A stretch of DNA of 64,000 nucleotides from Takakia lepidozioides (GCA_030704615.1 CM060731.1:71672001-71736000); one strand, 5' to 3'. Shown: positions 18,701 through 64,000, numbered from the stretch's first letter. Notes: generated from the letters alone by a model not told the origin. A program made the numbers and translations.

Positions 18701-18755
18701 CAACCGCTTTCACCACTTCCAAGATGGGGTTTGTTCTTGTGGGGACTACTGGTGA
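15754..18755 (+). CDS. Intact PLS-E-DYW PPR protein (PPR4), canonical C-to-U organellar editing factor (DYW:PG type)
   Basis: ORF 15816-18755 has PG box (EPGRSWIEV), HSEKLA, CGDCH and terminal DYW. The homologous ATG at 15754 is one base out of frame. Confidence 0.97.
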
Positions 18756-32703: not shown

Positions 32704-33609
32704 CACACCCCTACCAACAGGGAGTCGATGTCCTCATCGACTTGTCCATTTTGTAGAAACGAACATCCAAGTTGTGGCGTCCCACATCAAGGAGTTTGTT
32801 TCTGTACCATGGCGTCCCATGGCAAAGAACCAAACCCCACACTTGACTCTACTCTCCACTAGCTAGTTCGGCCGACTTCCTCCAAGTCCCGGCCAAGGGT
32901 GGAGCCTCTCCAGCTCCTCCCAGTGCACTCTTCTTGGCCTACTTCAAGGCCAAGGAACGATCCTCCCCGAGGATCGAATCGCCTTACTGCAACAACATTG
33001 CTTGCGATCGCTCATGATGCCGCTTTTGGCATCACCTTGAGCAAGGGTTCACCTGGAACCCTCTTTGACTATGAAGATAACCTTGAACCAACCATGCGCC
33101 CCAATCACTACAATTGGGTCCGCCTTGGAATGCTGGCCTGAGGTACGGGAACACGCCGAAGCCGCACTACGACTTCGTCCCGAGGCTACACGATTATAGT
33201 ACGTGAACGGAAGCACGTAGCTTCCGCGTTAGCCCGCACTACAAGGCAACCCCCTCGGTAGCGCAGTTATAGTACGCGCACGCGCCAGGTGCGCACTAGC
33301 ACGCGAACTCCCAAATAAGGCGCAAGTTTCCTTGCCCCTTGGATGGGAGTCACCCGATTTCGGCACTGCGCAAACACACGATTAACCCAATTTACCTCTC
33401 CCACTTTTGTAAGCTAGCATGCATTCTACACACTAGCCAACCGCACCATGCATCACCATTCCAAACACAATAGGACGCACAATATTTGGAACCCATTTCC
33501 TTTATAACAAATTTTTGTACAATACAAGTTTTTGCAATCGGATTCCTGAGCTAGCTAAACCGGGTTAAGTATGCATTTCCTCTCCCACGCTCCAAGGTTG
33601 ATGTCCCCA

Positions 33610-36600: not shown

Positions 36601-38222
36601 CCACCATTCCCACATGGCAGCGTGACTACTCTCTTGCGGCCATCTATGACCGCTCCGGATTTGCTCAAAAAGGTCATCCCTAAAATGAGATCCACTCCAT
36701 CGATCTCGCAGATAGTGAAGTTTTCACGTCCCTCCCAACTCCCCAGTTGAAGAGGAACATCAAACGCCAACCTTGTCGCCAACTGAGGTTCTCCTTTGGC
36801 AGAGCGCACCTCAATAGAGGCCCCCACGTCACTTGTCGGGAGTCCCAACTTTCGCGCCGCCACCGGCGTCATGAAGGAGTGCGACGCTCCTGTGTCCACC
36901 AACAACGACACGTTAGTTCCGGATATTATCCCATCCACGAACAATAACTGACTCCCTTTACGCAGGGCGCCAGTTTCCTGATACAACTCACAAGAATAGT
37001 TGCCTACCTTGCAAGTCCTGGCGACTACCGCTTCCACCAAACGACTGATGGTATCTTCCGACAGCTCCGTGGTCGCCCGAGTCATGTTCAATTGCCGGGG
37101 CTTCGTGCACTTCTTGGCCATGTGTCCGGGCTCCCCGCAATTGAAACACACTCCATCAAAGGTCGCCTTCTGTCCGCCATAAGCCGCTCCACCCGCTTTT
37201 CCTTTCGAAGCACCGGGTGCCGCCTTGACGTGTGAAGGACCTCCCTTCGATTTCCACGTGCCATTTTCGCCGCGTGGCCTATCCCACTTCTTTTCCGGTC
37301 GGGAGGAGTCACCTTCCCGCCGGGTCTTCTTGTGGTTCAGCTCCGTACGGCCTTGTCTCTCACCCCTAGGGACATCCGAGAAACATTCAGCTCTCTCAAT
37401 TGCCTCGTTCAAAGTCTTGGGTGGCTTCTCCTCCAACTTCCGCCTAGCCCATGGGGCCAGTCCCGCCACAAAGTTGAAGACCATTTCTGGTTCTGCCATG
37501 TCCGCGACTTCGAGCAACAGCACATTGAAAGCCTGGACATACCCCCGAATGTCATCTGTTTGCTTCAAATTCCTCATCTTGTCCCGGGCAAGCCAGGATG
37601 CGTTGAGGGGCACAAACTGTCTCTTCATCAATTCCTTGAACCCACTCCAGTTCAAGGTTTCCGGGCTTGGGCCTCAGTCGTGAAGGCGTTTCTGCCACCA
37701 TTGTTGAGCATAGCCCCTCAAATAGGTGGGAGCCACTTCCACCCGATCCTCGTCACTCAACTTGGCCGCCCGGAAGTACTGCTCTAGCTCCAGGAGCCAG
37801 GTGTTGAGTGCCTTCCGGTTTCGAACGCCCTCGAAGGTGCCGGGTTCCTTAGGCTTCACCTCAAACTTTGCCTTAGTGGAAGTGGCATTAGCCGCCTTCA
37901 ACACGTCTTTCAACGTCCCGCCAAACTGCGCCAACAACCCTTCCCAAAAGGCTGCCGGCATGGGAGGCATCTCTTGGTTTGTCGGAGCTCTCAAGGATTC
38001 CTCGGGCTCCGACTCCTCGGATTCCTCCCGCTCCTGAGCGGCCTCGTTTTCGGAAACATTCATCGCTTCCTCAAACGGCCACCTCGGTGACACGTCGCCC
38101 CCATCGGGCTCACCGGGATCATCATCTTTTGGGCCGTTCCGCTTTCGCTTCGGCTTGCCTGACCCCATGATGAGGCCAATCCCAAGGACGATCGCGTACT
38201 GAACTCTAAGCTCTGATACCAA
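33610..38222 (-). pseudogene. gag-pol of the gypsy element, with one in-frame TGA at 37674-37676 and frameshifts near 35050-34960 and 34400
   Basis: [14 protein letters not shown] zinc knuckle; [10 protein letters not shown] protease; [11 protein letters not shown]; [11 protein letters not shown] RNase H; HHCC and SMDF...SDRD integrase; GPF motif; EYEVEAIL...YLVKWKGY chromodomain. Confidence 0.95.
38210..38221 (-). other. Primer-binding site for tRNA-iMet
   Basis: TGGTATCAGAGC on the minus strand, 2 nt from the 5' LTR. Confidence 0.92.
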
Positions 38223-38223
38223 A

Positions 38224-38946
38224 TGTCGCGCACCTCACTTCGGTAAACTCCCCTTCAAGTCATAGTTACTCGCTTTGATGCGCGCGCCTGACTCCCAACC
38301 TGGCCGCCGGGCCAACTTGGAGTTTCGGCTGCTCACCGGGACATAACGGTCCCCTTTCGCTTCCCTCTAAAACCCTCCACCTATTGGGACTAGGAGAATT
38401 CCCTTTGGTAGATGGCAGTCCGGAACAGCTCCCCACTCTTTGGTCGCTTTCCGGCTCGCTCGCTTACTCACTAGTTTTTGGTCACCAACGGGCTTGCACC
38501 GTTCTCGGGGTTACTACTCCCCTTATATATACTTCTGTAGCTGTCCGCGGGGGTTCCACAACCAGCCATGCCATTTTATGGCGAACCACCACGAAAACCC
38601 TCGACTCCCGGTGGTGAGTCGCGGTGAGTCTTGGCCCGCTCACCACGGCCCCTATGGACCGTGATGAGTCCCAAGACTCCCCACGACTCCCACCACGAGG
38701 TCTCCGCCCCCATGGTGAGTCCTATGCCACCCCCACTAAGTCCCACTAAGCTACCACCACCCCTTGTGGAGCCACCCCCACCGCAACCCGGTGGGGCTCC
38801 ACCTAGTGAGCGCCTCTGCTTCCCTGAGTGCCTTGGGCACTCAAGGGTGCTTCAACCCCCCTTACCTATCGCTGCCGCTGCCCCCACCACAGGGGCAGCC
38901 CCTCATGTGTCCCGACCCCCTGCCCTCAAGGCAAAGGGCCGCGACA
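38224..38946 (-). repeat. 5' LTR (723 bp)
   Basis: tgtcgcg...cgcgaca termini; TATATAA near 38530 on the minus strand. Confidence 0.95.
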
Positions 38947-41714: not shown

Positions 41715-44700
41715 CAACTGCCCTTCACCTGCACGTACCCATACAAGTAGTACGTCCTTGTCAAAGTGCAATAAAGTCAATATGTCAATCATTTTACCCA
41801 CTTGAAAGCGAGGTGGACGAACAAAGATCTGAGGATACTAGCTCTATTTAGTGATTAATGACAGATCGGGAAAATACTGTGGACAGAACAACGCAGCACT
41901 GATAAAGAGTATGTCAAAAGTTCATACGATCCTTCAATCCATATGAATAACTATATATGGGAATGCTTGAATGTTCTGACTTTATGGTGCGTGCAACCAC
42001 GAACATTGGTCCTGCTCAGAATCCCGAGTTGACACGTCAGCATACCAAACACAACCCTTTCAAATGCCATGGCTCTCAAGAGCCCTTCACTATGGGCTTG
42101 ATTGTTGCACAGAAGCAGAACAAGAAAAGCATCAAAGCAAGAAGAGAGCATCAGGAACAAACGTGCGAGCTGCATCTTGCAAAGACCCAAACTCATTGAT
42201 ATCTTTTGTCTAGCCCTACACCCGCCTGTCATATGACTGAATGTCTCACCGGCAGATAGACGATCCTCCCACTTGGTCGGCTCCTATGACAGTTGCTTGT
42301 GACAGTGATCTTGACCTGCCCAATCACCCCTCCCACATAACCACAATTAGTAAGGTATGTCTTAGCAGCAAGGCCAGAGATGTCTCATTTGACTCGAAAT
42401 GCAAATAGTCTCGCTGAAATGTTTGTCCCAGCTCTGAAATTCGACGGGGAGATTATGAATGGAAAAGTAGATAATTATTTAGTGACAGGGATACATGCCA
42501 AGAAGCATTTGACAACACTTCCACATGTTCTCCATGCTCCACATCTAATCAATTGAAATCACTTCATGAACGGCAGGCCCTAATTTAGAGCCAACTTGGC
42601 CAAAAGTCCAGGAAGCTATATGAATAAAATGTGTATCTTATGCCCCCAAGCTCTCATGAGTGATGGAAGGCTGGCGGAGGATTCTCCTCTAGAATAAAGG
42701 TCACTTGCAGCCTTCCTCCCCAGGTCACATATCCATATTTCTTTCTCCAGGTCCATAACATCAGAACTACAACAAACACCTTTCTACACGAAGGACCTTT
42801 CTACAGCTTCATGCTACCAAGTTGTATATACTGCTTACAGAACATGCTTGAATTGAAATATAGCAAAAGAACCAGATTCAAGAGATCAAAGACTGATGAC
42901 TTGGACTCGGGCTTTTGTTGGTCGACATTGAATTGTTGTTGTCTGCAAACATCATCCCATAAGACAACAACTCTCTCACAATAGCTGACACCAAAAACCT
43001 ATAAGCTATAGTTTAAGCTATAAATTACAATAATTACACTATAGTTGAAACCTTTCAACTGCCAACAGATCTGAAGAAGCACTCCCATCCATAACAAGAA
43101 CTATGCTGCATTTGGGAAATTGAGAAGTAAGAGAGAAGAGCATGGGATTGAGTGGCCGCTTGGCAAGATGCTGCTGATTCTAATCCAGCAATAGAAGTGC
43201 AAATTTTGGACTACGAAAGATATAGCCATGCAGCCAACCTGAGATGCCTGAATCAATCCTTCCACGGTCCAAGAGAGAGAAAAGAAGGCTTTATAGAATC
43301 CTCCTCCACACACACACCTAGAGAGAGAAAGAAAGAGACAAAGAAAGAGCTGTACAACCTCCATAGGAGGCTCAAAAGACTTTACGGGACAAGGCCAACT
43401 GAAGATAGAATGAACAGAATAGTGGGGCTTATCAAAAATTGAGAATATTATGAGACACACCTCAAAGAATGAAAGGGAGAGGTTTGACAATTGAACCTCA
43501 CTGGCAATTGACCCAGAAGCAAAATGAACATCTGAATTCCGTTGATGATAAGAACTTGTAGCTTCCAGTGCCAGCTTCCAAAGTAGGTATATATGTCAGA
43601 AACTGTGGGGACTGACTACCCATAATTTCGAGCCTTTACAGTTGACTAGAAGAGCACAAGCAAGACTTGGAATAAAGTCAGGCCCAATGAGATCTCGAAC
43701 TCTATGACACCCACTAATTCCATATCAACACAAGTCATATCAGACACCATCAAACCTATGGCCCTCTATTATGTCAGTCACCTCCACTTCAAAATCCCAC
43801 TTCATTTGCAAGTCAGCTATGTACTTCATTGTTGCCAGTACATGTTGGTCATGACATAATGTCTAAGGGGAGCACAGTGACTTCCATATATTCATTTCAA
43901 TGCATCACAAAAATTGAGACCTCCCACAAGGGTTACACATAGCTGTAGCTTGTGACATGTGAGGGTCTCAGTCATTGAATTGATCAAGAAGGCAGAAATG
44001 TGCCAGCACATTTTCAATGTTTTTTCAGATGACCTCACTAAAGTTTGGACTGGGTCATTCTGGTGTACATGTCTTGAAATCTCCCTGAAATCGAACTGGT
44101 TTCTATCTTTCTGCGACCTACAGAACAATGAGAGCAAGAAAGAGGCAACGCACCTGTCAGGTGATGCAAAGCAAGCAGCAAACGGCCCCTCCTTTGCACG
44201 CTCTCCATACACTGAGGTGCCCCCTTCCTAAAACGAACATTCCACATCGTTGATTAAGTAGTTGTTCCAAAACCACTTCTTAGAACATTGTAGCTGATAC
44301 AATAAACCCAAATCTCAAACTTCCATGTCAATCTCAATTTCCCTTGGTTATTTCATGTTCTTTTTTTTACCTAGATTCAGTAATGAACTGAAACATGTAG
44401 CTGGCAAAGGAATATCGTGGCACAAAACAGGGGAGAGGTGAGCGATGAGAACTGTGATAGATGGCTGGCCATATGTTTGCTGGTCGCAGCTCGTTGCAAG
44501 TTGGCTGGTCACATGCCAAATTTCATCGTCCCTCCAGATTTTGCAGCTTCTTGTACGCGCGCTACCGTCGTTAGGTTTGCTGTTGCTTTTGTTGGTCAGC
44601 ATCGCCCACGTCGTTGTTGGTTTGCTTCTCTTCCTCATTCACTTTCGTTCCAGAGGTTATAGAGCACCATTTGATTCTTGCATGTCACGTTTTGTGAATG

Positions 44701-44794
44701 TGCTGTCTTGTTTGATGCGGAGCATCTCTTTTCAATTCATGTGGTTCCAAAGCTGTTTCAATTAGTTTGAATTGATTAAAGCTGTTTAGGTGTT

Positions 44795-47700
44795 TCAATG
44801 CATTGCTGCTTCTCTGCTGGTGGTTTGTATGGTAGTTTGTATGGTGGATGGTATGGGTGGTTTGTGGTCATGGTTTACTGGTGCTGCTGGATTATTAGGG
44901 TTATGGATTAGGGCCCACTTAATGAATTCGTCAAGACCGATTGGCATAGCTAACTTGAATTTCCCTACGGAGATACAAGGCTGGGTGGCAGGAGGTGTTT
45001 TCTTTCTATCCTTTAGGAAAACCTCACAAAGGTAACCGATGTCCAGAACCAGGACGTAGTATCCTGGCCGCCATCCGTTCGGTCCCCAAGTAAGGGAATG
45101 CAGATCGTTTGGATTGACAGAAAGGGAATAGTCGAATGGAGGGTAATGCATGTTGTCCTATGGAATAACAGAAGAGTTCATTATTAATTTCAATTTGAGA
45201 AATCCCAAAGTAGACAAACGGAAGAATGGAGTTGAAATCATTACAATTTTTGGAGTCGGCTGCTGAGATCCCTGGGCAGGCTGCTCCTCCTCTTTCCCAT
45301 CTCTACATCCAACATTATCGTCCTTCTCTGTGGAGCCAGATGGCAACCTCGACTGTCCAGTGGAGGTTACTTGTATGACCGGCTCAGATAGAGCGACAGT
45401 AATTGTTCGATCCACCATCTTCACCGTCTCAATGTCGATGGAGTCGGTCCTCGTGTGTTTGATCTCCTCAGACGTCGTCTCACGAATCTACAGGAAATTA
45501 ATGAAAAATCCCACGGATGACGACTATGGTGGTCCAAAATGATCTGACAAAATTACCGAATAGAGCAATACCGAAGATGAGATTGAAAGACCAATAATAA
45601 GAGTAATAAGAATAAAGCCATTGTTTTACCCGAATCGGGATCTGTTGTTGGATTACGCGATTGTGGTGCTCTGTCTCTTCTCCTTCCCCGCGAGTAGGAG
45701 GATTCTCCGACTCAATCCTTGCGTCCCTTGATGGCAACGTCGACTGGACAGTGGAGGTTACTTGCGGAACCGGCTCAGGTGACCTGGCCCTCACTGTCAG
45801 ATCCACGTGTCTCTTCACCGTTTGAGTCTACTTTGATCCTTTTCTTGTGTGTCATTTCCTCCGAATTGGATTCTTGGATCTACAAGAAAAGTTATCCAAA
45901 TCGGTTGGTGGCTGTCCACAAAGGTGTGTGAACGGAAATATGTATCCGGGTGGAAATATGTTTTATTCAGAAGTCTAGAAAGACGGATATGGGAAAAACA
46001 TTGGGATTATATATAATTACAATATTGTCATATGGAAAAAACATTTGGATTATTCCACTCACAAGTATGTATAATTACAATATTGTCATATTGTATTTAG
46101 AAGTGTGTACGAATAAACATTCACTAATTGTCATTCGTTACCTACATCCAGAACCACTTCCTGGGTAACATTCTCGGACACCAGCTCACGACGATTGTTA
46201 ACGGGATCCGGTGACATAATCAAGGGCTCGTCACCTTCCACAGGTGTGAACCCTTGACCAAGGGTTTCAACTAACTCCCTCGATGACGCTTCTTGTCCCC
46301 CTGGAGAAGCCGGATTCTTATTCGTGGTGTTATCGGAACTGGAGGAAGAGCTATCCAGATTGTGTACATCTTATGGTGCAACGCGTTCTTGGGTATTTGG
46401 ATAACTACCTACATTATCCAACCGGGAAATTTCCTGGTCCTCTCTTTCCCTTTCCCACATTAGCCGCATCTGCCCCTGGTCTCCGTTGACAATTTCCATG
46501 TTCTCATCTTCGTCTTTCTCCTCCTCGTCGTCCTCTTCTAGTTTCTCCTCCATTTCCTCGTCCTGATCCTTGTTGTGTCCTTCGTCATCATCTTCTTCGT
46601 CCACTTCGTCATCCTGCAGTGAGTCTCCGTCATTTCCGTCTCCTGCGATAGTCTGATTGTCAATCTAGAGGGTCCTGAAATAGGCCTCCACCTTGCTTCT
46701 ACAAAATTTCTTTTTCGTTACAAAGTTTATGTCGAGCACACGAATATTTCTTTCCTGTAATGAAACTAAACAATGATATCAAAATAAATCCGACGAACAC
46801 CAACCATCGAAAGATTGACAGGGTTAGGCTTTCTTTTGAGACAACTAGCAAACACACCAAACTCCTGAATAACAAACACCCAAAACACCCACAACTCCAA
46901 TAACATGAACCTCCACTGCCCAGTGGAGGTTAACAAAATGGAAACAATCAGACACAGGTTAAACACGCTATTCCGACAACGTCAATAATACGAGAGTTAA
47001 ATCCGGGAAAACTGAAAACACAGACAATTCCAAGATGCAGAATCCACTTACAAGCAGAACGTATGTCATTGCCAGTCCTCCGAAAATGTTCACACAAGAC
47101 ATTCCGTCCCTGCAAAAAAAAAAAACCAGGTAATCGTAGGTGTCCGGCCTCAACTCATGATTGTAAGTCCTGCACTCCTTCTCCTGCGAGGTCGGGTCTA
47201 CATCTGGTCCTTGGATAACGGGATTAATTTTTGGGTCCGGCGATAACAAAACAATTTGAATGTGGTCGTCCGGATTCACCATCTCCTTAGTTGTTGCCGG
47301 AAATACGTAGTCGAGGCAGAGGACCGTCCGGGAGAAAATAGTCGTGCAGCTCTTGTAAGGTGATTCAAACTCGCCGGGAATGTAATAACCCTGTCGGATA
47401 ATAAACGATTTTGATCCAGGGCCATTCCGGATGTATGACACAAGATTTCCCGATGATTATTGTGTCGAGAAAAACACAAAAGCACTGGACATGAGCTTCC
47501 GAGCCACAAAAACATCCAGGATATTTGAGTAGTCATTTGCCTCGAAGACAACAGAGTCATCATCACAAACTGTATTGGCCAACACCATGGATATGTCGTC
47601 GAACCGATTCTTTGGTGCAAGTCCCAACCGTGATCTGGCATCAACAAATTTCTGGTTCCCCCCCAGCTGTGTGTAATGGGACCTGAAGCTCGTGCGTAGA

Positions 47701-50330
47701 ATCGCCAGGGCATTCTGGTTATCCTTGAAGGACTGCTTGCACGACAAGACATAATTCTTGAAGGCAACAGTCATTGGCTGCGTCTCCATATTCATCTTTT
47801 GTTTGCTAACAATGTAGTCGTTCCCGAGCCTATTTCAAAATGTTTCAAACTCAGCTTTGTTGAAGTTGTATTTTTTTTTAACATCACGCCACTCCTGTTT
47901 GGTATACGGTTCCGGGTTCTGTTTGCTCCTCCGAGGCCACCCTAAGCATTACATCGTCGATAATAAACCGTCGCAATTTCATTTGGTCAATATACGCGCT
48001 CATTGTGTTTTTGGATTTGTCCGCGCCCTTGAATTTCGTTCCCCGAATGCAAATGTCTCTGTTTAGGATTTTCTCCGCCACTCTTTTCAACTGCCTGCTA
48101 TTAAGTCCTTGCAGTTTCGCGATAGCGGTTTTATTCAGCGGTAGCTGTTCACCATTGCACTGAATCCAGAAAATATCAATAAGCTTCCCTTGTTCCCACT
48201 GTTTGAAAACCTCCTCCCACAGGATCCATACGTCTTCGTCACAGAGAACCAGAACCATGGCCTCCTTCACGCTACTCATCTCCAGTATGAGTTGACATGC
48301 TTGCATAAATTCCTACGAAAATTATCAGGGCCAAAGTTAGACATTTCATTCGATATTTGATATTAATTTTTGAGATGAAACAATAGTCACAACTATCATG
48401 TCAATTATACTATACACCAAGTGATGATTCGATTGTTAATTCATCTCCCTTCATCTTGTTGTGCCTTGTAATTTGAAGCTCTTTCTGTAGTGTCTCCTGC
48501 TTCGGAATGCGGTGCTCCTCCAAGTCAAATTTGTCCAATCTCTTCATGTTCTCCACCAGGAACAGTTCCAAGAGTGTACCTAGAAAATCCTTGAAAAACC
48601 CAATGAGCATGAAAAGTTTTGGAAGCATTCTCCGCAACATCACGTTTTCATGATCATATGATGTTTCAAGTATTTTTGCGGCACATTTGCGGAACTGTTA
48701 CAGGTGGAGAACATAAATAGATTGGGAAAATAAGAGCTGGACAAGCACCTCATTACCAATCAAGACATATTACAAAAGACCCCATCATGTCGAATTTCCA
48801 AATGCTGAACCATCCCGCTCGTTCATTGTAGCACCCTCCCTTATGAAGCTATTTTTGTAGTGTCTCCTGCTTCGTAATGCGGTCTCCGTTCGTCACATTA
48901 AATCCGAGCTTGAAAATAATTTTGTTCTCTAGCAAAAGGAATGGAAAACACAATGAATTATTTACCTTCCATTGTCTAGTCTCCGACTTCGTTGTGTGAT
49001 CGTTGTACTTTCTCAGCCTCCCCCTCAGCTCGAAGAAATTTCGGGCATGTGCAACTTTCTCGGCAAATGTTGTGTCAAATTTCTGCGCCTTATTCGGGTC
49101 GTTTAGAAGCTTAGATAGCTTCACGAGCCTCATCAGATCCTTTGACCATATAATCTTTGAGGGCCAGTCAGTGTAGTGCTTCTTAAGATTGTCGTCGTCC
49201 ACGTCTTGCACAAGTTCCTGCGACAGAATTGAATAAGGTCAGAAATGATATCGACCTAACAAGCATGTTGTTTAAAGTTCATGAACCTCCACTGTCCAGT
49301 GGAAGTTCATGTTGTTACAAAAATTGGATTTTGTCGGGAAATTTACCTTGGCAGCAATGATCGTGTGTTGTCCACCAATGACGAAGAATCTGGAATTTTC
49401 CACCTCCTTCCAGTTTCGAGGTTTCGAACTAGAAACCTCCATAGGCTTCTCGGGGTTTGCGGGAATCAAATAAACTGGATGTTTGGAGTCGAACACCCGG
49501 AGCTGGTAAGACGCGCTTTGACTTCGTCTTTGTGCTTCACATTTAGGGGCCTGTACACCATATCCTTGGGAGCAAGCTCCATCATGGAAACTTTGACGTC
49601 CTGGGTCGCCTCAAACCCAAAAAAAAAACATGTCATTGTAGTCTTGCTCCAACCTCTCCAGCATCTTCTCACACTTGTCAATATGTCCGTAGCCTTGGGT
49701 TTCTTGGTATCTGTCATGAACGCATGATCCATCTCCTCCTTTTGTTTCTTCTTTCCCTCTGATGTACCGGCTTCATTGTCATCACCACCGGTCAATGGAT
49801 TTCCGTTTTCCCTTCTTTGGCTTCGCTCTTGCAGCCTCCTCCTCCCGCGTCTTTGCAATCTCCTTACCCTTCAAGTAAAGCACATCCAAGAAAATACCCC
49901 AAGCCATGCAAAAACCTTCATCTGTAAATTCAGTACCCTCGTCGCAATATGTGAACCCCGCCCGAATGGACTCTCTCATCATGGCCTTCCTTAGAATTCG
50001 TACCTCCAGTTTGAAGCCAAACGTTATGGGAAATCTACCATCTTCCATCATGAACTTTACTAAAATCGGAAATTCCACATCCATCCCCAGCTCTACGTCG
50101 ACCACATCTGCATATTTGAGCTCGGCGACCTCTGCACCAATCTTGTATTGGAACCGGAACTTATGGTCCGGAGGTGTGCCAACAGGTACAATGCCCCATT
50201 CTGTGATCTCCGGGTTCAGCTCAAAAATTGCCAGGTGATCATTCTTGAAATTCGGAGATTTTCGAGAAACAAATGAAGCACAGATAGGTTTGCACATTCC
50301 AACAATACAATCCCTCGGGGTAATGTTGTT
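44795..50330 (-). pseudogene. Large multi-exon TE-associated gene: ParB/Srx-like domain, helical region, methyltransferase-like C-terminal motifs, acidic tail
   Basis: Co-oriented ORF pieces with GT-AG boundaries; VYRPLNVKHKDEVK...FFVIGGQHTIIAAK; ELRPDTYDYLVFFFCRDGMSCVNIFGG; D/E-rich segment at 46371-46650. Several frameshifts. Confidence 0.55.
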
Positions 50331-50586
50331 GTCCACAGAACAAACCACCTCGGTCGTTAGACACATATCATGACAACCATACAAGATTCCGAGGACAGTA
50401 ACCTCCACTGTCCAGTAGAGGTTCAACAATTCACACGCTCATAGCTGACAGATAAAAGAGTTCAATTCAGGAGGAAAAAATGATTTCAATTATAAGAAGA
50501 ATAATACATTTATTCAGAGAAGGCTCGTCTCGCCATTCCATACATCATGCGGTCTCAAAATTGTTCTTATAACGAATATATAATTT

Positions 50587-51198
50587 CTACAAGAAATCGA
50601 TATTCTTTTGTAAGATGAGTTTCATCTTTTCAAATGTTGTATATGTCGGAGAATCTCCAGAGATGTATTCTGGAAAATCTCCAGGGACGTACTGAGGAGA
50701 ATCTGCAGAGACATATTCTGGAAAATCAGCGGGGACATATTCTGGAGAATTTACAAGTACTACATACAGAGGAGAGTGAGGAGTGTATCCTGGAGAGGAC
50801 GGTAGGACGGATCCCGGGTACTGTTCACTATCTCCTACTGAAATGTCATTATCTGAATCAGACTGAAGATTACACTCATCACTTTCATCTTTCTCTTCCT
50901 CTGTTTCCTCTGTTGTCTCCCGTCAAATAACTCCCTCCAACATTGATTCATCAATGCCCAGATTTATGAAGGTTCGCACGTCAGAGCCCACATCTGATAT
51001 TTGATTCTCAGATCTCTTCTCGAAGGTTTTTGTTTTCGATACAACCAGTGATTCGTCTTGGTTTTCTGCTTCGTTGATGCTTACTGGATTCTGTCTCCTT
51101 GGCTTCTTACAGATGTCGACGACGGTCTCAGAACCATCTTTGGTCACCGTGTGCACTCCTACGCCCGTTCTTTTTATACTAACAGAACAAAAAATCAA
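50587..51198 (-). pseudogene. Acidic protein with SPxY repeats (24-bp tandem unit); one internal TGA at 50923-50925
   Basis: The frame continues past the TGA: RETTEETEEEKDESDE...SSPGYTPHSPLY...SPEYVPADFPEYVSADSPQYVPGDFPEYISGDSPTY...DFL*. Confidence 0.6.
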
Positions 51199-51429
51199 CG
51201 CAGGGGAGGAACCTACATAAGTCTATCTCAATACATCCTTATGTTGTGCCTTGGCATAGTAACACACAGGAACCTTCACTGGGCAGGCAAGGTTCATGTG
51301 GTTTGTCCTGTCGGAGTTTATGGAGGTCTACTAGAGGTCTAGTGGTCTATGGAGACTAGTCTACTAGAGTAGCCTAGCCCCAAAGAAAACCCCGTTATCA
51401 AATATCGGAAATTCGGAAAAACAATCGTT

Positions 51430-51910
51430 AAAAACCATGATCCTAACCCGCCAAAAGTTTGTCGTTTGTTTTTGGAATACTGGACCTGAAATGAACGTCG
51501 AGACTATCGCCAAGGCCGTGTTCGGGAAGTACTATTCCTAGGTCAGAACTTACAGCAGTGAGAATTCCGTCATGAATAGATCAACATTCAACGAAAAATG
51601 GTCTAAAGCTCCCAAAAAATCCCATCTACTTTAAACGTCTTTACGACATTTTCACTGAGGAACACCCGACGGCTTACAAATCCAATACTCTCCTCATCGA
51701 CACTGTAGACAATATGTACAAGTCCTACTTGAACCCATTAGGACATACCATCTTCCTTCCAAAATACAAGGCGCGCATGGACCCTGACAGGAATAAATTT
51801 CTACTGGAAGAGCTCAAGGGTTACCTTAACATGTTTCGGTTATCGGGGATGGATGTCATGCCGTTCAACGACCTACATCCTTTCGGCATTTCGAAGGATT
51901 TCTTCGAGGA
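51430..51910 (+). pseudogene. Degenerate FCP1/NIF (HAD) phosphatase-like domain, copy 1
   Basis: FVVCFWNTG...NTLLIDTVDNMYKSYLNPLGHTIFLPKY...LLEELKGYL...HPFG; contains a stop and a frameshift. Confidence 0.6.
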
Positions 51911-52149
51911 CCCCAACGGTCAAATTGAGACTTTGATTATAGGTGACAGAAGTTCCTTAGCAATCTCGAGTTGCGTGCCGCTGCATTGGGACATTTTAAC
52001 TGAGTTTGGTGAACCTCGGCTGTCCAGTGGACGTTCTTGTTCACTTGCCTGGTGTCGGTTTTTCCAATACATTGTATTGTTCCCTTTTATCATCCTAAGT
52101 ATGAATGACTCTCTGGCAGATCGGAGCACTTGTTTCTCCTCCTGCGCAA

Positions 52150-52344
52150 GGGTTGCGTTTGATTATTTTTGACGTGAATGGAGTCTTGTGCAAAATCTTG
52201 AAGCACCAGAAGAGCTACAATGTCCCCCGGTTTTCAGAATCGGACTATAGAATTCCAGCTCTTGTCGGATTCCGACTTGTCTTTAGACGGGAGAAATATC
52301 GCAACGTGATGCTGACAACGTCATCGGTTCCTCGAGTCCCCTAA
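52150..52344 (+). pseudogene. NIF-like N-terminal fragment, copy 2
   Basis: LRLIIFDVNGVLC resembles HAD motif I of plant NIF-like proteins (DxNG). Confidence 0.5.
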
Positions 52345-53597
52345 AGGAACCCTCCGGATCAGCTGTGAGTCGGAGTATTGAAGGCTTTCCGAGGGTTCAC
52401 GATGGTGCTCAAATTGAGGATGGATCCTCTGTCAGACCCTTGTCCTCCCGGGAAGCGGGCGACACTCTTCTCCTCTCGGGTCCTCCTGGGGATAAAGTCC
52501 AAGGTGCAAGTGAAGAACACAAATATCCCGGAGACTTTATCGACCTTTCCCAACATTCCTCACCCTCCCTGTTCAGTACGCAGGGTCTGGTCTATCCAAC
52601 CCGCAGGGCAACCGTCGGGGACTCGGCTACGGCTCCGCTGCACATGCTTCCATCTCTTCCTCGCATATCTCCCCAGCACGAGGGTTGGACAACCCAAATC
52701 CACAAGAGTCAGGTGCCTTAAACTCATTTCTCGCTCTTTGCTCATTCTCCTAGTTTCACTTAGTTTGGGGTCTGATATTCATCTGTCGCTCCAGGTAAGA
52801 AAATCTGCAGATTATGACTTCCTGTCAAACGACGTCTGCATTGGAATGCAGTTCCGAGGTAAATTATTCCTTCGTTGCGTTTCCTTCTATCCAGGATGTC
52901 GAGTGCTCAAGGGATAATTTTCTGTGCTTGTCTGTTGTTGCCCCTCTACTTCTCCCGTCGTTCAATGGCAAAACATCTCCAACATCGACACAGCGTGACC
53001 CTGAACTACTCGCACAATGTTCTGCACCAAAGAGGCGAAAAAAGAGGCCCCGAGCCATTTCCTTCCTCTGCAAGGAATCATTCCAAAGGACAAAAGGCTG
53101 ACAAGAAAAAAAAAAACGGACTCCAAACACTTGAGGACTCCCTCGGATGTTGTGGCGCCTCGTCAATCCAAGCCCGCAAGAATCCACTGTTCTTCTGCCA
53201 GACATTCCAATAAGGCTTCAATCGTACATTTCAAAACAATTTCTCCACTTTCGTTTGCAGTTTGTTTTTCTGTCCCAAACTAACTCCGTAATTTCTATAT
53301 AAGCGAGTATGGAGCCGCATAACTTCTTGAATGCGCCTCCCGACAAGGTGCGTCCACTGACCTCCACTTGACAGCCGACGTTCATCTTTTTGTGATCTCG
53401 AACTCTTCGATATATGGTCTACTCTTGGTCCTTTACAGTAGTCCATTGTCGGGACACTTATGTCTCCGAAAACGTAGAGGTCACTCTGAAACTAAGAAAC
53501 ACTACATCGTGTTGTTTCTAACGGCGGGAACACTTAAATTGCGCGGGATGGTATCGTCCATCAACCTTCATTTGCCACATCGGGGAAGAGGAAACGG

Positions 53598-54161
53598 ATG
53601 CTATTAATATTGAGTGTCAACGGTCTCCTTTGCTACCGGCCATCTCCAACCGGCGGTGAATTGTTCAAGGAGAGATTTCGTTTCAGGAAAGTTACAGTTC
53701 ATGTTCCCGAAAGACCTTTTGTGGTTCCCCGGCCCGGAGTCTTGGAGTTTCTCAACCTTGCGTTCATGCATTTTCACGTGGTGATCTGGTCATGTGCAGA
53801 AAGACATGTTCTTTGTAGGATGCTCGAGTGTTTAGTTCCTACGAAAATTGCGAAGAAGTTTTGCTTCATCTGGTCAGCTGAGGATTGCAAAGACACTACC
53901 GGTTACATCATGCCTTGGATGAGATATCTTGTTAAGGATATTCGCACTATTCTTGTCAGGTACCCTGGTACACCCTTTGCAACTCACGGACAAATACTCC
54001 TTGTTGATGATGAGCCATCAAAGGGCCTCCGAAACCCACCAAATACTGGATTCTTCCCTATTTCATACAAGCCATCACCAAAGGGATTGGTTGACCAGGA
54101 TGATATGACAAAAGCTGTGTGGCCAGCAACCATTTTTTGCAAAAAAAAATTATATATCTGA
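53598..54161 (+). CDS. FCP1/NIF-homology HAD phosphatase-like protein, copy 3 (nucleophile Asp replaced by Ser)
   Basis: LLILSVNGLL...RPGVLEFL...FHVVIWSCA...VKDI...ILLVDDEPSKGLRNPPNTGFFP. Confidence 0.8.
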   Translation: MLLILSVNGLLCYRPSPTGGELFKERFRFRKVTVHVPERPFVVPRPGVLEFLNLAFMHFHVVIWSCAERHVLCRMLECLVPTKIAKKFCFIWSAEDCKDTTGYIMPWMRYLVKDIRTILVRYPGTPFATHGQILLVDDEPSKGLRNPPNTGFFPISYKPSPKGLVDQDDMTKAVWPATIFCKKKLYI

Positions 54162-55345
54162 CCTCACATCATGGTGTAATTTATTGCATCCTCCCATTTT
54201 TTTCGTGAACGTCAACTTGGCAGTGGATGTTCTTCTAAAACCACAATACATACTTATATTGTCTCAAAAAATGTTTTGGAGGATTATATTGTGTATAAAA
54301 TAACCAAAATAATCATATATATCGCTTTATTTCAATAATAAATTATGTTTATTCATATTTCTCATATTATTTCTGGACCAAACAAAAGTCCAGAATTAGT
54401 TAAAATAGTGTTCTGAGGTTAGTGCTTGGGAAAAGAAGGGTTCCTCCATTGAAGAGGCCCTTAGAAGGGCTAACAATGAAGATGCCCTACCTGTACCTAT
54501 ATAGAGATCTTCGACCACTGTTGAAAAGGACTTTGTACCCTCAGTGAGTAATCACCCAATTCTGGGCTGTATGGATGTACCTGATGAAGAAAAAGAAGTT
54601 GTAAAAGACTTTTTTGACCAGGTTGTGCTCTCCCAAGTGGAATAGGACCGGGTTGCTGGTGCTACGCCAGGCAACCAGCAATTTGTCCCTTGGTTACCCC
54701 CTAGGGCGGTCGAGCTTGAGGTGACCAACAATGACCACATGATGTGGCATCCCACGGCTAACATCAATCTGCTGGCCCCTATTTCGATTGACATGTGGGT
54801 CAAATGGGGGAACATTACACCAACTGAAAGGACCAGATGTGCACATGATGCCAAAGACAGCTTCCAGAGGTTCAAAAAAGAGCCAATTGCCACCATTGAT
54901 TAGGTTCAGAAAAGTATTCATGCCACGGCTTCATGACTGTTTAGGGTTCACTGTCACAAATGAAAGTGTGTTTGTCAGAATTTTGCCCACCCCAACAGCT
55001 CAGTCACTCCCACCCATGCAAGGTACCATGTTGTATCAAGTCTAAACCTTGGAAAAATACATGCAATAGCAAAAACCAACTCTAGACCATAGCACAACTG
55101 GCCTGGTACCTCCCATGTGGAGCTTGCCTCCGCCTTCTACCATTTCGCCTCTGCCTTGACACGAGAGCAAGAACTGCAGCGAGACCAAGATTATGCCGCA
55201 CATGAAGACTTGAATGAGACCAGCTCGGAGTCAGAGATGGAAACGACGAAAGAAGCCCCAGCAAAGACAAAGCGTGCAAAGCACCCTGCAAACTCCCCAA
55301 CCCATCAGCAGGTTTGCGATTTGCACCAAAGTTCTGTCTCCATGG

Positions 55346-55525
55346 AATAAGTACATAAATGCGCAGGTCAAACTTGTAACCATTTATCAGCATTGGCTTT
55401 GTCAGGTACTTTTGTGCCAGCAAATTTGAACCAGGATACCCCTCAATGGCCCGTTTTACATCTGCCAAACTTTGTGCCAGAATGACTCCTCTTCCCTGGA
55501 GCCAGCCCCAGTGGTCATCTTGAAT
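55346..55525 (-). pseudogene. Tubulin-tyrosine ligase-like (TTLL) gene fragment
   Basis: GAGS/QGRGVIL...LAQKYLTKPMLINGYKFDLRIYVLI, the TTL-family KFDLRxYVL signature. Confidence 0.8.
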
Positions 55526-56939
55526 ATCTCAAACATTTTCTTTCTCCTTAGGTCTATCATTTTGTATCATGTGTGATCCATTATGTGACCCAATTTTATT
55601 CTCTTGACTGTCACTCTCTACTTGCCTCCTGATGTCACTTTTGTACTTGATGTAACTAAAGTAAAGATCAAGCTCAGAATGAGGAGATGGTCTTGTGTAG
55701 GAGCTGTGATAGTTCCATACTGAAATCAACATGCAACCCAGGAGAAAGGTCATTGCTAGATCTGTGCATTGCCAAAGCATATTACTCTTTTGAGTACATT
55801 TACTCTTAGGCCATCAGGCCACAGAATAAATTTCTTTCATATGGATGCTACGAGCTCTTGAAGTGGTTAACAGCGTGTCTGCATGATGCACTCCCATATC
55901 AGAGCAACTTTGAACAAGTTGTGTTTTTGTTGGTTCTACTTCCTCTCGGCCTCCTTGGGACATAATCAATTGCTTCTTTTTCTTTACATATTTTCTCTCC
56001 CCCTCTCTTCTTGTGGATATAATATCATCTCCTTTTGGTTTAACTTTTTCAAAGACAGTTTATAATGGTCTTAGAATGTACTCATTTAAGATGTTTGCCC
56101 GTAGCTATTTGTCCAAAGAGAGTGACAGAGAGATATAGAGAGAGAGTTGTTTCGCCATTTCTGCCTAGTGTTTTACTGGTAGGGCCACTACAGCCACATG
56201 TGCGACGAGTTCAAACACCAGAGCAGTGCTGAAATCAACCTCATGTTTTCTAGTATACTGCCAATGTTGTCCATAAATCAATTCCTTGTAGTTGGATTGT
56301 CATAACCTGTCCGTGACCCCCTATGGCAGTTTTGGGCCCATCCCAACCTTGGTGGGCTCCCAGAGTTTGCGGAAAGAGATTGGCAGGTGGGACAACTGCA
56401 ATGTTAGGTCAGCCTATGCCCGCTTGCGCTAGAACAACAGGGAAACTGAAAGTGATGAGTCTTTTTTTTTTCACTGCCCTTTCTACTATGAGATCCGTGG
56501 GAGATTCACTTGTCTATTCTGTGATGCCTAATCTGTCACGGAGGTCTTCCATTCAGAAATGCTAGGCAGCTTAATATACAAAGCAGTACTGATTGGCTAA
56601 GGAACAAGGTAGATTCCCTTATGATGTGTATGGAACTCACCTTGTCATCTCAACATGGCTCTTAGACAAACCCTTGAACAATAGTTGCTTTTGGGCTGTT
56701 TGTGGAGGGCCCATCTCACTTTCTTGTTCTTTTCTCTTGCCCCATGAGCTCTTTTAGCTTTCTGCGGACATTATAGCTGAAGTACCACTTCATTTCTACA
56801 CCGACTACAGTGGGTACTAAGTTGGTCTCACGAGTACATCTATCTCTCAGTCTCTATTGCAAAGTCTCTAGAAGCATGCTCCAAAATAGCCAATGTGGTT
56901 GTTCGGGGTGAGTTTGGCATCCCTTAAGCTCCCGACGTC

Positions 56940-57135
56940 TTGGAAACAAGATCCCTGTCAAACAGGCTAAGTCCTAGCAAATAATTGCATCTTCCCGTAT
57001 CCATGGAAGTCAAGGGATCAGCCAAACTGCAAGAGGCTTATGAAAGAATTATTGCATTGGTTAGAGGGTGTATCCAAGGCTGTACACATCCCTGAGTACG
57101 TGTCAGGGCACCCATACAGATATGGGCAGCCCAAC
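56940..57135 (+). pseudogene. NIF-like C-terminal fragment, copy 4
   Basis: NNCIFPYPW...KELLHWLEGVSKAVHIPEYVSGHPYRYGQP resembles the C-terminus of plant NIF-like proteins. Confidence 0.55.
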
Positions 57136-57864
57136 TACTTGTTCAAGAGCGCAGCCATGGGTAGTGGATCACAACAATCTGCAAAGGCATCCGAACCAGG
57201 GCTTCCTGTTGCTAGAGTTCCAACGACTTTGCCTCCCGATGCAACAACAAAGCATAATCAAAGAAAGGTGAGAGCAAAAGTTTCAATGCTTGGGCGCGTG
57301 GGTGGATTTTTATTGTTAATGCTACTTCACATTGTGTGTCATTTGTGCTATTCTAAATTTTTGATCATTGTGTCATTCAATATACAGATGGTGAAACCAG
57401 TGAAGCGTTCAATGGGAAGGGAGAGTACAATATGTGCTATCAATCAGACTACAACCACAGTGGATCTGACTGACCCATAGGGTGACCAACAAAATCCGCA
57501 CAATGTAAGTACTTCCCTTGTGCAATTTTTTTTCCTTGTCTGATGTTGGATCAATACACCCCCTATGTATCGCCACATAGCTGCAGGCCCAGCAACCTAC
57601 AAACGTAGTTTTGTGACATCGTCCTACCACATCCATGCTGACCATGCATAACTTGCTATCAACTAGGTATGGCACCGTTCCAACTTTGATCATGTCAGCT
57701 TAGAGTATAGAGACAAGCAAATGCAATTCAGAATTGGAAGTACTGCAATAGGTAGGGTTGGGGTGTTTGCTGGAAGAACTTCAATGCCATTTTCAAGGAG
57801 TGCCAAGCTGTCAGTCTCTGTTCTCCAGGGTTCGATTGATATGGGAATCTGGTTTTTGTTGCAG

Positions 57865-58119
57865 TTTCAGATCGGTGACAAGGTGTTATTGTTTGATCCT
57901 TGTGCACCAAAAAGAAGGGTAGGTGTGGGATATATTGCTGGCTTTCCGAAAGCAAATGTGTCGGACAATTATTACTATATCCATGTGAAATTGGTCATGA
58001 TTTCAGAGGTTGTGTTGCCGTACCCGGACTACTGATCTGTCACCCCTAATCATACTACATTGGGTGACACGCAGGGAAGTTCCACCTTATGGTTTGAAAA
58101 GTTTCTTAAACACGCGTGA
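57865..58119 (+). pseudogene. CACTA TnpA/Tnp1-En/Spm-like C-terminal domain
   Basis: IGDKVLLFD...VGVGYI...YYIHVKLVMISEVVLPYPDY*...TLGDTQGSSTLW; about 1 kb inside a CACTA end. Confidence 0.6.
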
Positions 58120-59088
58120 TAGTGAAGGTGCTACAAGTTTAGTTTAGTTTTCTTTATAGATTGAGGGTTGCTGAGACAGGTGAACAAAACAGCTCTTCTC
58201 ATGTGAACCGTATTTTTTGAATTGATGCTCTTGCTATTCTCATGTATGATCACAAGATCCTTTTGTTCAAGGGCAAGTTAATTTTCCCACATCAAGCCAA
58301 ATTTTCCTTGTGATAGACATGAATGTGGTATTTTGTTGGTTGTTTGCTATATTTAATATTAATAACATTTCTACTGGTCAATGTGGTTAATAATACAAAT
58401 ATTATCCCCTGTTTTAAATAACCTTTTGTTTAAATGAAACAAAACAAATAAAAATTCTAAAATAATAATATATTAAATATTAAATCCAGCAGCCAATGGC
58501 TTTTGGGGTGCTATCCCATTTATTATAAGAATATCTATACTACAACAACAACAACAATAATAATAATATGACTATTTATTTTAGCATTTGTCAATAAATA
58601 ATAATTGTTTACTTTTCGTCCAATAGGAACATAACAGTGGATGTGACAGTATTCACACTAGTGTCATTGCGTTCACACAATGATTTGAACCTGGTGCTAA
58701 ATCTGTGTGAGAGAAGCCATAAGAAGAGCCCTTAATATCATTATTTATTTAATAATTCTGATGGACTCTATTACGTGGCATTCCCTTTGACATACATGTG
58801 GCAGACATGGTGGCAACGAGGTGTAATAAGTACCGTAGAAAGACCATTAAGATTACTTATTCAAAATACTAGTTGAACTGACTAGTCAAAACGGCCGTCA
58901 AAATATCCGTTAAAAGAGCCACCTAAACCTACTGCCACATCAGGTGCGAGTTTGGTGTGAGATGGTTTTTTTCATAGGACCAAGAAAGTTCACATGTGGT
59001 GCAAAGGACTGGGTTAACCTAACACCAGGGGGGGTGTGAACTCGGGCTCTTTTCACACCAAAATGTGTGAGAAGAGCCGTTAAAAAAA

Positions 59089-59106
59089 CCGGTTTCTCTA
59101 GTAGTG
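59089..59106 (-). mobile_element. CACTA terminal inverted repeat (right end)
   Basis: Reverse complement is CACTACTAGAGAAACCGG, with subterminal CCGT(T/C)AAAA repeats at 58895-59085. Partner TIR not found in the window. Confidence 0.65.
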
Positions 59107-60805: not shown

Positions 60806-63800
60806 TGTCGCGCACCTCACTTCGGTAAGCTCCCCTTCAAGTCATAGTTACTCGCTCTGATGCACGCGCCTGACTCCCAACCTGGCCGCCGGGCCAACTT
60901 GGAGCTTCGGCTGCTCACCGGGACATAACGGTCCCCCTTCGCTCTCCCACTAAACCCTCCACCTCTTTGGGCCTAGTGGAATTCCCTTTGGTAGTTGGCA
61001 GTCCGGAACAGCTCCTCACTCTTTGGTCGCTTTCCGGCTCGCTCGCTTACTCACTAGTTTTTGGTCACCAACGGGCTTGCACCATTCTCGGGGTCACTAC
61101 TCCCCCTTATATATACTTTTGTAGCTGTCCGCGGGGGTTTCACAACCAGCCATGCCATTTTATGGCGAACCACCACGAAAATCCTCGACTCCCGGTGATG
61201 AGTCGCGGTGAGTCTTGGCCCACTCACCACGGCCCCTCTGGACCGTGATGAGTCCCAAGACTCCCCACGACTCCCACCACGAGGTCTCCGCCCCCATGGT
61301 GAGTCCTATGCCACCCCCACTAAGTCCCGCTAAGCTACCACCACCCCTTGTGGAGCCACCCCCACCGCAACCCGGTGTGCGAGGCTCCACCTAGTGAGCG
61401 CCTCCGCCTCCTTGAGTGCCTTGGGCACTCAAGGGTGCTTCAGCCCCCCATACCTATCGCTGCCGCTGCCCCCACCACAGGGGCAGTCCCTCATGTGTCC
61501 CGACCCCCTGCCCTCAAGGCAAAGGGCCGCGACACACACCCCTACCAACAGGGAGTCGATGTCCTCATCGACTTGTCCATTTTGTAGAAACGAACATCCA
61601 AGTTGTGGCGCAAGGAGTTTGTTTCCGTACACATGTTTCCGTACCATGGCGTCCCATGGCAAAGAACCAAACCCCACACTTGACTCTACTCTCCACTAGC
61701 TAGTTCGGCCGACTTCCTCCAAGTCCCGGCCAAGGGTGGAGCCTCTCCAGCTCCTCCCAGTGCACTCTTCTTGGCCTACTTCAAGGCCAAGGACGATCCT
61801 CCCCGAGGATCGAATCGCCTTACTGCAACAACATTGCTTGCGATCGCTCATGATGCCGCTTTTGGCATCACCTTGAGCAAGGGTTCCCTGGAACCCTCTT
61901 TGACTAGGAAGATTACCTTGAACCAACCGTGCGCCCCAATCACTACAATTGGGTCCGCCTTGGAATGCTGGCCTGAGGTACGGGAACACGCCAAAGCCGC
62001 ACTACGCCTTCGTCCCGAGGCTACACGATTATAGTACGTGAACGGAAGCACGTAGCTTCCGCGTTAGCCCGCACTACAAGGCAACCCCCTCGGTAACGCA
62101 GTTATAGTACGCGCATGCGCCAGGTGCGCACTAGCACGTGAACTCCCAAAGAAGTCGCAAGTTTCCTTGCCCCTTGGATGGGGGTCACCCGATTTCGGCA
62201 CTACGCAAACACACGATTAACCCAATTTACCTCTCCCACTTTTATAAGCTAGCATGCATTCTACACACTAGCCAACCATACCATGCATCACCATTCCAAA
62301 CAAAATAGGATGCACAACATTTGGAACCCATTTCCTTTATAACAAATTTTTGTACAATACAAGTTTTTGTAATCGGATTCCTAAGCTAGCTAAGCCGGAC
62401 TAAGCATGCATTTCCTCCCCCACGCTCCAAGGTTGATGTCCCCATCAACGTTTCTTCCGCTTTTGAGGTCGCCCTTCGAAAGCTGCAACCGCCTCGGATG
62501 CGTTTCCCATTTCTGAGGCACGCACCCAAGATGCCTCCACATGATGACAGCCCTTCCATTTGACGAGATACTCCATTTCTCGGTTCCTGAACCTCCTCGA
62601 CTTAAGTATTGCCTCCACCTCGTACTCAGGTTCATTTTCATGATCCAACAGCATAGGTGGCGGACGCAACACTTGATGCCGATTCGGACGCGCTTCATCT
62701 TTGAAGTAAGGCTTCAAAAGGGAGACATGGAATACTGGGTGCACCTTGCTGTTTGCCGGCAGCTCCAATTCATACACATCCTCATTCATAACCTTCCGAA
62801 TGCGAAAGGGTCCCGCATACGGAGGTACGAACTTCGGACTCACTTCCGGAGGTAGTCGGAAATTCTTGATGTTCAACCAAACCTCTGTGCCTGCCTCAAA
62901 CTTCACTTCCCTCCGCTTCCGATTCGCCTGCCTTTCATACCGTTTCCTAGCTTTGGCAATGTTGTACTTTGCGAGCTTCAACAAACGCTCGCGTTCTTCC
63001 AGTACCGCCGCTACTGCCGGTTCTTCGACGTCCTGGGCGGCCCAACTTGTCGGCACCAAAGGTGCTTTTCCATAGACCAATACGAAAGGGGAAACTCCCG
63101 TTGCGGAGTGTTATGTGTTATTATAACAGAACTCTGCCGCGTCTAAGTGTTCCATCCAGTCTGATTGGTCTGCCGACACGTAATTCCGCAAGATCTGCTT
63201 CACTATGGAAGTCACCCTTTCTGCTTGGCCGTCGGTCGTAGGTCGGAAGGTGGTGCTCATCTTCAGCCTCGTCCCCATCTTCTTCCAAAGTGCTCTCCAG
63301 AATTTACTCGTAAACTTTGGATCGCGGTCCGAGACAATATCCTTCGGGACTCCATGATGATTTAAGACGTGGGCGAAGTAAAGTCGCCCTGTCTCCTGCG
63401 CCGTTGCCGTCTCCTTGGTGGGGATGAAATGGGCCATTTTACTGAACCTATCTACCACCACCATGATTGCATCGAATCCTTTGGACAGCGGCATAGCAGT
63501 CATGAAATCCATCGAGACGCTTTCCCAAGTCCCCTCTGGAATCGGCAAGGGTTGTAACAGCCCCGCTTGCTTTTTGTACTCGCTCCGATTTTGTTGGCAT
63601 GTGGTGCATGTCTTGACATACTCCTCTGCCTCCTCCCTCAGTTTGGGCCAGAAATACTCTTTCTTCAAGAGTGCCGCAGTGCGCTTGGCTCCGCCGTGGC
63701 CCGCAAGCGGGCTATCATGGCATTCTCTCAAGAGGCTATCTCTGATCCCTCCCTTCGGCACGTAGAGACGTTTTTGCTTATACCGGAGCAGTCCATTTTG

Positions 63801-64000
63801 CAAGTGGAACTGCGATTTAACCCCCATCCTCAAGTCCTGCATCACGGACTTCGCCAGCTCATCCTTCCGGCAAGCCTTCCGGATCTTCCTTTGGAGCGCC
63901 GTCTCGCCCTTGTACACCAACAAGAGCTGCTGCTTTCTACTTAAAGCATCGGCCACCACGTTGTCTCGTCCCGGTTTGTACTGGATATCCACGTCGAACA
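60806..64000 (-). mobile_element. Second copy of the same gypsy chromovirus (3' LTR 60806-61534, 3' UTR, integrase-chromodomain); runs off the window
   Basis: Highly similar to 32108-35160. GAA>TAA stop at 63111-63113. Expected TSD is GAATG. Confidence 0.96.

Follow-up and report, generated by a model that had tools for sequence, protein, structure and literature searches.

Dispersed palindromes in a multi-copy DNA transposon of Takakia lepidozioides as putative binding sites for its own predicted ParB-like protein

In this work, we analyzed a window of 64,000 nt from Takakia lepidozioides (GCA_030704615.1 CM060731.1:71672001-71736000; coordinates are counted from the start of the window), in which a multi-copy DNA transposon carries nine 24-bp palindromes dispersed through and around a spliced, decayed minus-strand gene whose product we predict to be ParB-like. 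The host is a land plant, the window containing PPR arrays (one with a DYW domain), a NAR2 gene and Gypsy elements. Contigs from four public sequencing runs were aligned to the region, two of these runs (X1 and X3) representing one sample and a third (X5) coming from another study. In X1, the main contigs reached a depth of 2000-2700 over approximately 44400-55340 and again over 56940-59100, versus 50-70 for single-copy pieces, and since this is far above the single-copy level the repeat would be present in tens of copies, depth not being an exact measure of copy number. All nine palindromes lie in the first of these blocks (44400..55340, with approximate ends), the CpG-rich part of which extends over 44388-53945.

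Nine palindromes in a multi-copy block

The sequence-only reading of this stretch had reported nine palindromes of constant length, and all of them were located at the claimed starts, each 24 bp long. Over the 22 defined positions of the consensus, sites 1 to 9 have 1, 2, 0, 1, 1, 4, 3, 5 and 4 mismatches, respectively, whereas the next best places in the 64 kb have 7. Six sites lie within 3 mismatches, versus 0.00 expected from 100 dinucleotide shuffles. A matrix built from the six strongest sites gave the remaining three scores of 23.1-24.8 bits and the next position in the window 11.3, while the best score in block-shuffled sequence averaged 9.1, with a maximum of 22.2 (100 shuffles). Both the mismatch and the matrix scans found no palindrome in the window outside 45345-54231, in agreement with the earlier statement on this point. 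Pattern scans of other collections returned seven loci in metagenome contigs, none in viral contigs and three in prokaryotic genomes, with one good match each; nine of these ten are the same site, a near-perfect match at what is apparently one Methylophaga-type marine bacterial locus, and the tenth is cyanobacterial. We treated them as chance matches and not as relatives, as they have neither a cluster of sites nor tblastx similarity to the element.

The half-site consensus reads AAC-n-T-y-n-r-CT-k, where positions 2, 3, 5, 9 and 10 never change among the 18 half-sites, while positions 4 and 7 are free to do so. Outside the arms there is a weak extension, ACATG, in which 49 of 80 letters agree with the motif versus 20 expected, and none of 20000 random sets was equally biased (site 2 was excluded from this count as a duplicate of site 1). 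As this extension prolongs both arms, the full site may be about 34 bp long. The two central bases are not free, contrary to what had been proposed: they are TC/GA in six sites and CC/GG in three, so none of the nine is a perfect palindrome. The sites are spaced approximately 1.1 kb apart, more evenly than random (p 0.04), and none is subterminal, as had been noted before.

Most of the sites are distributed over the minus-strand gene (45161..51222, approximate extent), which has acidic and repeat-rich segments at both ends, and over the plus-strand NIF/FCP1-like frames that follow it. Introns and splice sites were called from the sequence alone. Site 1 (45345..45368, spacer TC) lies in the first unit of a 391-bp duplication and is likely exonic, and site 2 (45736..45759), its duplicate, has the spacer GA, flipped with respect to site 1 while the flanks keep their orientation. 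Site 3 (46908..46931), a perfect match to the consensus, falls in a predicted intron of the gene at approximately 46756-47051, and site 4 (49284..49307), for which most other copies have the perfect consensus, in a 129-nt phase-0 GT-AG intron at 49218-49346. Site 5 (50400..50423) is 25 bp upstream of a possible minus-strand start codon at 50375, and site 6 (51271..51294) separates the minus-strand gene from the divergent NIF-like frames. Among the latter, segments 1 and 2 (51380..52341, plus strand) were read by eye and have no Pfam match, whereas the third domain (53538..54158, plus strand) matches PF03031 with an E value of 3.5e-10. DxDxT is the catalytic motif of NIF/FCP1-type phosphatases, and in this third domain its first aspartate is absent. 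Site 7 (52012..52035) lies between segments 1 and 2, site 8 (53359..53382) before the third domain and site 9 (54208..54231) after it. Nearly all other copies have the consensus A as the first base of site 8 (4885 of 4993 by depth in X1).

Thus, the description of sites in exons, introns and between reading frames holds in the sense that two are in GT-AG introns, the first two are likely exonic and the rest are between or upstream of frames. Likewise, the sites do bracket the first and third NIF-like copies by position, although only the third of these copies is confirmed by Pfam.

Conservation of the motif across copies

The contig alignments allowed us to compare the motif with its flanks across copies of the element, as the sequence-only reading had suggested; the variant data are the 40 best-supported entries. 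The motif outlasts its flanks, and one copy has lost a site. Within the window itself, the two units of the 391-bp duplication are 57% identical overall, with 21 of 24 positions identical in the motif versus 199 of 359 outside it (Fisher p 0.002). A second subfamily, detected in X3 at a depth of 1010 and also in X5, has a motif that matches site 3 exactly and that is likewise separated by 35 nt from the splice-donor end of the intron (position 49343), while the 35 intervening letters are unlike.

At site 4, five X3 contigs span the motif (entries of this run were assigned to individual contigs by summing depths): three have perfect palindromes, one has a single change and one has a 14-nt deletion within the site. 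One of the three with perfect palindromes, a single-copy contig whose alignment sets in at the edge of the motif, differs by 7 substitutions and 3 gaps over the neighboring 35 nt, while the sole change in its motif is towards the consensus (p 0.017). For both site 4 and site 8, other copies are nearer to the consensus than the window copy is. In addition, there are contigs in X5, X1 and X3 whose alignment is confined to the motif and whose flanks are unrelated, the X5 depth being 19.9 on the motif and 8.9 beside it; as these flanks, compared by eye, resemble none of the nine, we assign them to another site or family. Altogether, the palindromes look selected.

Candidate binding protein and competing explanations

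The two exons of the minus-strand gene at 48966..49700 form the predicted ParB/Srx-like region, the first of them ending in GGQHT. Frameshifts near 49507 and 49623 interrupt the window copy and are absent from nearly all other copies in the contig alignments. Read by eye, GGQHT occupies the position of the arginine box of ParB, and a degenerate stretch later in the gene resembles an S-adenosylmethionine-binding segment; the region at 46666..47879, on the same strand, resembles by eye a degenerate N4/N6 DNA methyltransferase, with two in-frame stops and without a recognisable catalytic motif. Searches with the first ParB-like exon in the Atlas gave DUF3723, DUF6551 and ParB_N as leads at 0.86-0.88, below 0.9, the ParB_N lead accounting for 29% of the members of that Atlas cluster; we take DUF3723 and DUF6551 to be ParB-related families. 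The second exon gave nothing useful in the Atlas. With hhalign, GGQHT was aligned on the GERR box at a probability of 1.5%, and 2 of 60 shuffles were as good.

Two further features of the gene may be mentioned. At 48474-48883 it contains a 133-nt inverted repeat (74%) with a 29-nt gap, plus a 40-nt direct repeat, which suggests a fold-back duplication. At 50590-50922, on the minus strand, there is an acidic frame that contains the stretch YTPHSP and approximately five repeats of 8 residues, Y-x-P-x-x-(S/F)-P, which recall the carboxy-terminal domain (CTD) of RNA polymerase II and adjoin the NIF/FCP1-like, that is CTD phosphatase-like, frames.

The block also retains CpG. The observed-to-expected CpG ratio is 0.83 over 45300-54300 (0.83 in coding and 0.88 in non-coding DNA), compared with 0.44 in the PPR genes, 0.24-0.55 in adjacent segments and 0.42-0.44 in the second multi-copy block, which has a CACTA-type end. 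The change-point fit that delimits the CpG-rich part gave a log-likelihood gain of 53, versus at most 9.5 in 20 permutations. Such CpG retention would fit long-term protection of the block from CG methylation.

Taken together, these observations can be read as follows: a multi-copy DNA transposon of a plant has kept the palindromes as conserved internal sites, putatively bound by a dimer of its own predicted ParB-like protein, which would mark the element as self and shield it from silencing by methylation. We give this reading an even chance of being correct. A dimer of the protein would bind each palindrome as double-stranded DNA, one subunit reading each half-site and, weakly, the ACATG outside it. 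The regularly placed sites, which lie mostly in introns and spacers, would nucleate the protein over the full length of the gene block, and the bound protein would then mark the copies as self and keep the block open and unmethylated, as VANC does for VANDAL elements. Binding, the identity of the binder, its ParB fold and the anti-silencing effect are what we infer here. We regard as rather doubtful a more specific version, in which a fusion of a ParB-fold protein with a dead methylase would load at the dispersed palindromes, spread approximately 1 kb to each side and keep the 10-kb block free of CpG methylation, helped by the CTD-like repeats and by NIF pseudophosphatases engaging RNA polymerase II. 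If it were true, the system would stand beside VANC as a second, independent one of its kind, with its target defined at 24-34 bp.

Several results weigh against the self-marking reading. Regarding conservation, pooled X3 variants in the intron of site 4 fall inside the motif in 3 of 24 positions versus 21 of 105 outside it (p 0.30 with all entries), and the test reaches p 0.049 only when the entry with the change towards the consensus and that of the deleted copy are left out; the loss of 14 nt inside site 4 in one copy points the same way. Regarding the protein, scans of the frames with Pfam, NCBIfam and PHROGs detected no ParB or methyltransferase family. Home-built profiles of 34 ParB and 36 methylase sequences were not significant, being no better than 5-24% of shuffles (for the methylase profile, 126-235 of 1000 shuffles were as good); a profile of 27 ParB middle domains (helix-turn-helix) was unmatched by the suspected segment, with 803 of 1000 shuffles as good. 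Two single-sequence folds (predicted local distance difference test score, pLDDT, 40.6) had no structural match, and homologue searches gave no homologous protein, which is weak negative evidence. As for the CpG signal, the Gypsy copies in the window also have ratios of 0.87-0.90, the CpG-rich block starts approximately 1 kb before site 1 and ends approximately 250 bp before site 9, and no clear gradient with distance from the sites was seen. A foreign or recent origin therefore explains the CpG retention equally well.

No relative was found in viral contigs, phage records or solved structures, and six matches from a search of representative sequences were rejected, as they were driven by bacterial Ig-like repeats. 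Because family, homologue, profile and fold tests were all negative, the ParB label is a prediction; the earlier naming of a ParB-like gene was confirmed by no significant test, and the likeness to ParB and to a methyltransferase draws on motifs seen by eye and on the sub-threshold Atlas leads. The GxxRxxA arginine patch of ParB serves the binding of cytidine triphosphate (CTP). In the window copy it is not intact, the aligned stretch being GQHTIIA, and if the ParB label holds a CTP-driven sliding clamp is doubtful, because the arginine is replaced. Hence the comparison with parS/ParB stands as regards several palindromes clustered around the gene, but is weakened as regards CTP-dependent loading. 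The suggestion that the palindromes are operator sites for a dimeric element protein has fared better, being supported indirectly by the conservation against flanks, the invariant positions, the changes that break pairing and the confinement to the repeat within the window; its ParB-like binder and its anti-silencing role are matters of inference.

Among the competing explanations, the one that survives best is that the same protein binds the sites for autoregulation or transposition, repressing or tuning divergent promoters or looping and compacting the element, with silencing unaffected. The positions of sites 5 and 6, just upstream of a possible start codon and between divergent genes, would suit it, KorB-type proteins of the ParB family are repressors, and the CpG signal is confounded. 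However, seven of the nine lie at a distance from the predicted promoter region, evenly distributed over 9 kb, and the sites are all internal, which makes this explanation unlikely in our view, if the most serious of the alternatives. It is less probable still that the sites bind a different protein, be it a host factor or one encoded by a segment of the element that the window copy lacks. In favor of this are the predicted status of the ParB identity and the fact that neither the left end nor the transposase lies in the window. Against it, a palindrome of 24-34 bp is long for a plant transcription factor site, the remaining 55 kb of the window do not contain the palindrome, and in published algal elements ParB-like genes occur together with inverted repeats.

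The remaining explanations, even considered jointly, are improbable. The sequence-only reading had offered, as another possibility, recombination sites delimiting cargo cassettes; such crossover sites would consist of two arms and a 2-bp core, like those of a serine invertase. The constant length, the 11-bp arms and the asymmetric 2-bp core agree with this layout, which hix-type sites resemble, as does the flipped spacer between sites 1 and 2. Nevertheless, two sites interrupt one colinear gene in its introns, the spacers are of two kinds unable to pair, no recombinase family was matched among the scanned frames of the window and no direct site-to-site joint was found among the 15 joints listed of 103, so recombination is very improbable. 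Both orientations do occur, as had been stated, and the flip relative to the shared flanks of sites 1 and 2 explains them without exchange between sites. Since only the central two bases are inverted there, while the arms, with their asymmetry, and the flanks are kept, a local hairpin-loop micro-inversion is the likely origin.

We consider a role as RNA or single-stranded DNA hairpins, such as splicing or processing signals, highly improbable. The consensus site does fold, at -9.4 kcal/mol (z -4.65). In contrast, sites 7 and 8 gave no hairpin in the folding test and site 6 folded no better than shuffles, the palindrome has no Rfam match and both spacer orientations are found on the sense strand. 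Moreover, 80 of the 99 arm pairs are consensus, and of the other 19, 12 break the pairing on both strands, 6 leave a wobble on one strand and 1 is compensatory. As the changes in the arms mostly abolish pairing and two sites cannot fold, base-specific reading of double-stranded DNA is favored. A Helitron-type hairpin was discarded by eye, no CTRR end following the sites. Finally, tiny independent transposon insertions or neutral relics of old duplications are hardly credible: duplication did produce sites 1 and 2, and the flanks of some sites are similar on one side, but at most one of the nine has a 4-bp direct repeat at its edges, with no longer target-site duplication at offsets 0-6, the motif outlasts its flanks, and the deleted copy lacks 14 nt and not a clean 24.

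Element context and relation to known systems

The second multi-copy block (56940..59106), of similar depth to the first, contains short subterminal repeats and ends in TAGTAGTG at 59099-59106, a CACTA-type terminus. From the similar depth, it is possibly the right end of the same element as the block with the palindromes. No matching left end was found in the window, nor was a transposase in family scans of its frames; a TnpA-like reading of 57667-58032, made by eye, had no family match and was set aside. Between the two blocks, at 55085-56400, there is a fragment of a tubulin-tyrosine-ligase gene (PF03133, E 2.5e-11) at a depth of approximately 250-370, which may be a captured host piece or host DNA parting two elements. 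Just left of the first block, 44198-44479 shows a 225-nt skip with intron-type minus-strand ends, at a depth of 135 in a run presumed to be RNA, whose coverage of the block itself is scant. Farther away, at 863-18755, four long PPR genes with a period of 303 bp form inverted pairs, with one Pfam DYW domain among the matches listed. Two Gypsy copies (32108-38946 and 60806-64000) carry a chromodomain, are 96% identical to each other and have split terminal repeats; their CpG retention is accompanied by a low CHG ratio (0.70-0.75).

In bacteria, parS sites and KorB operators are several degenerate palindromes near the gene, read by dimers, the usual site being 16 bp. The palindromes described here are likewise several, degenerate and clustered near a gene. 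They differ from parS/ParB in their greater length, in the replaced arginine patch and in that no ParA ATPase partner was seen among the frames scanned in this incomplete element copy. No segregation role for parS/ParB is known in the plant nucleus.

Closer counterparts are found among eukaryotic transposons. In Plavaka (EnSpm/CACTA) elements of the red alga Bostrychia, the ParB-like PAG3 adjoins tandem inverted repeats and self-binding has been proposed (bioRxiv 10.1101/2025.02.11.637652). As far as the accessible part of that preprint describes them, these elements share with ours the format of a large DNA transposon with accessory genes, a ParB-like protein (predicted in our case), inverted repeats, a methylase-like product (by eye in our case) and a CACTA-type end nearby. 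However, the repeats form tandem arrays beside PAG3 there, whereas ours are single, dispersed and mostly intronic or intergenic; PAG3 carries a 2-oxoglutarate oxygenase and the methylase is a separate gene, whereas here the methylase-like part seemingly belongs to the same gene and NIF-like frames are present; and the host is a red alga and not a land plant. In Ectocarpus, Sola1-1_Ec32 encodes a 1104-aa accessory protein with ParB-like and N4/N6-methyltransferase parts that has been proposed to bind and modify its own element (PMC12477816). Judging from the available text, both are large DNA transposons with a ParB-like and methyltransferase-like protein (by eye in our case), but the main text of that article reports no palindromic site, superfamily and host are different, and the methylase-like region of our element lacks, by eye, any recognisable catalytic motif.

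For VANC of the Arabidopsis VANDAL elements, binding to motifs of the own family and local CG hypomethylation have been shown (PMC5735166). In the portions of that article available to us, the motifs lie, like most of ours, in the non-coding DNA (introns and intergenic) of their own element and have undergone duplication, two of our sites being likely exonic. By contrast, VANC motifs are 8-9 bp long, non-palindromic and arranged in one-orientation tandem arrays, while ours are long, dispersed palindromes with one duplication; VANC is not described there as ParB-like, and its function is demonstrated while that of our protein is predicted. In their accessible parts, neither of the two algal-element papers shows binding, and one of them calls VANDAL the only transposon known to bind and modify itself. 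A review on adenine methylation describes fusions of ParB-type helix-turn-helix domains to chlorophyte methylases and, in the part available, nothing on such sites. Our literature search, from which subscription papers were mostly outside coverage, yielded no report of a land-plant transposon in which a ParB-like gene is accompanied by dispersed palindromes.

The idea of self-binding by a ParB-like protein is thus already in print for algal transposons, which lowers the value of the present finding, as does the predicted status of the ParB identity here. Notwithstanding, the feature is real and likely functional, and we view it as a dispersed land-plant variant of the proposed transposon self-recognition system. 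As the locus provides a defined site with invariant and free positions, evidence of selection and a CpG footprint, it makes the self-binding idea testable. If the self-marking reading is true, it would reveal that a land plant of non-flowering type has an anti-silencing system with sequence specificity, which might also provide a tool for targeting.

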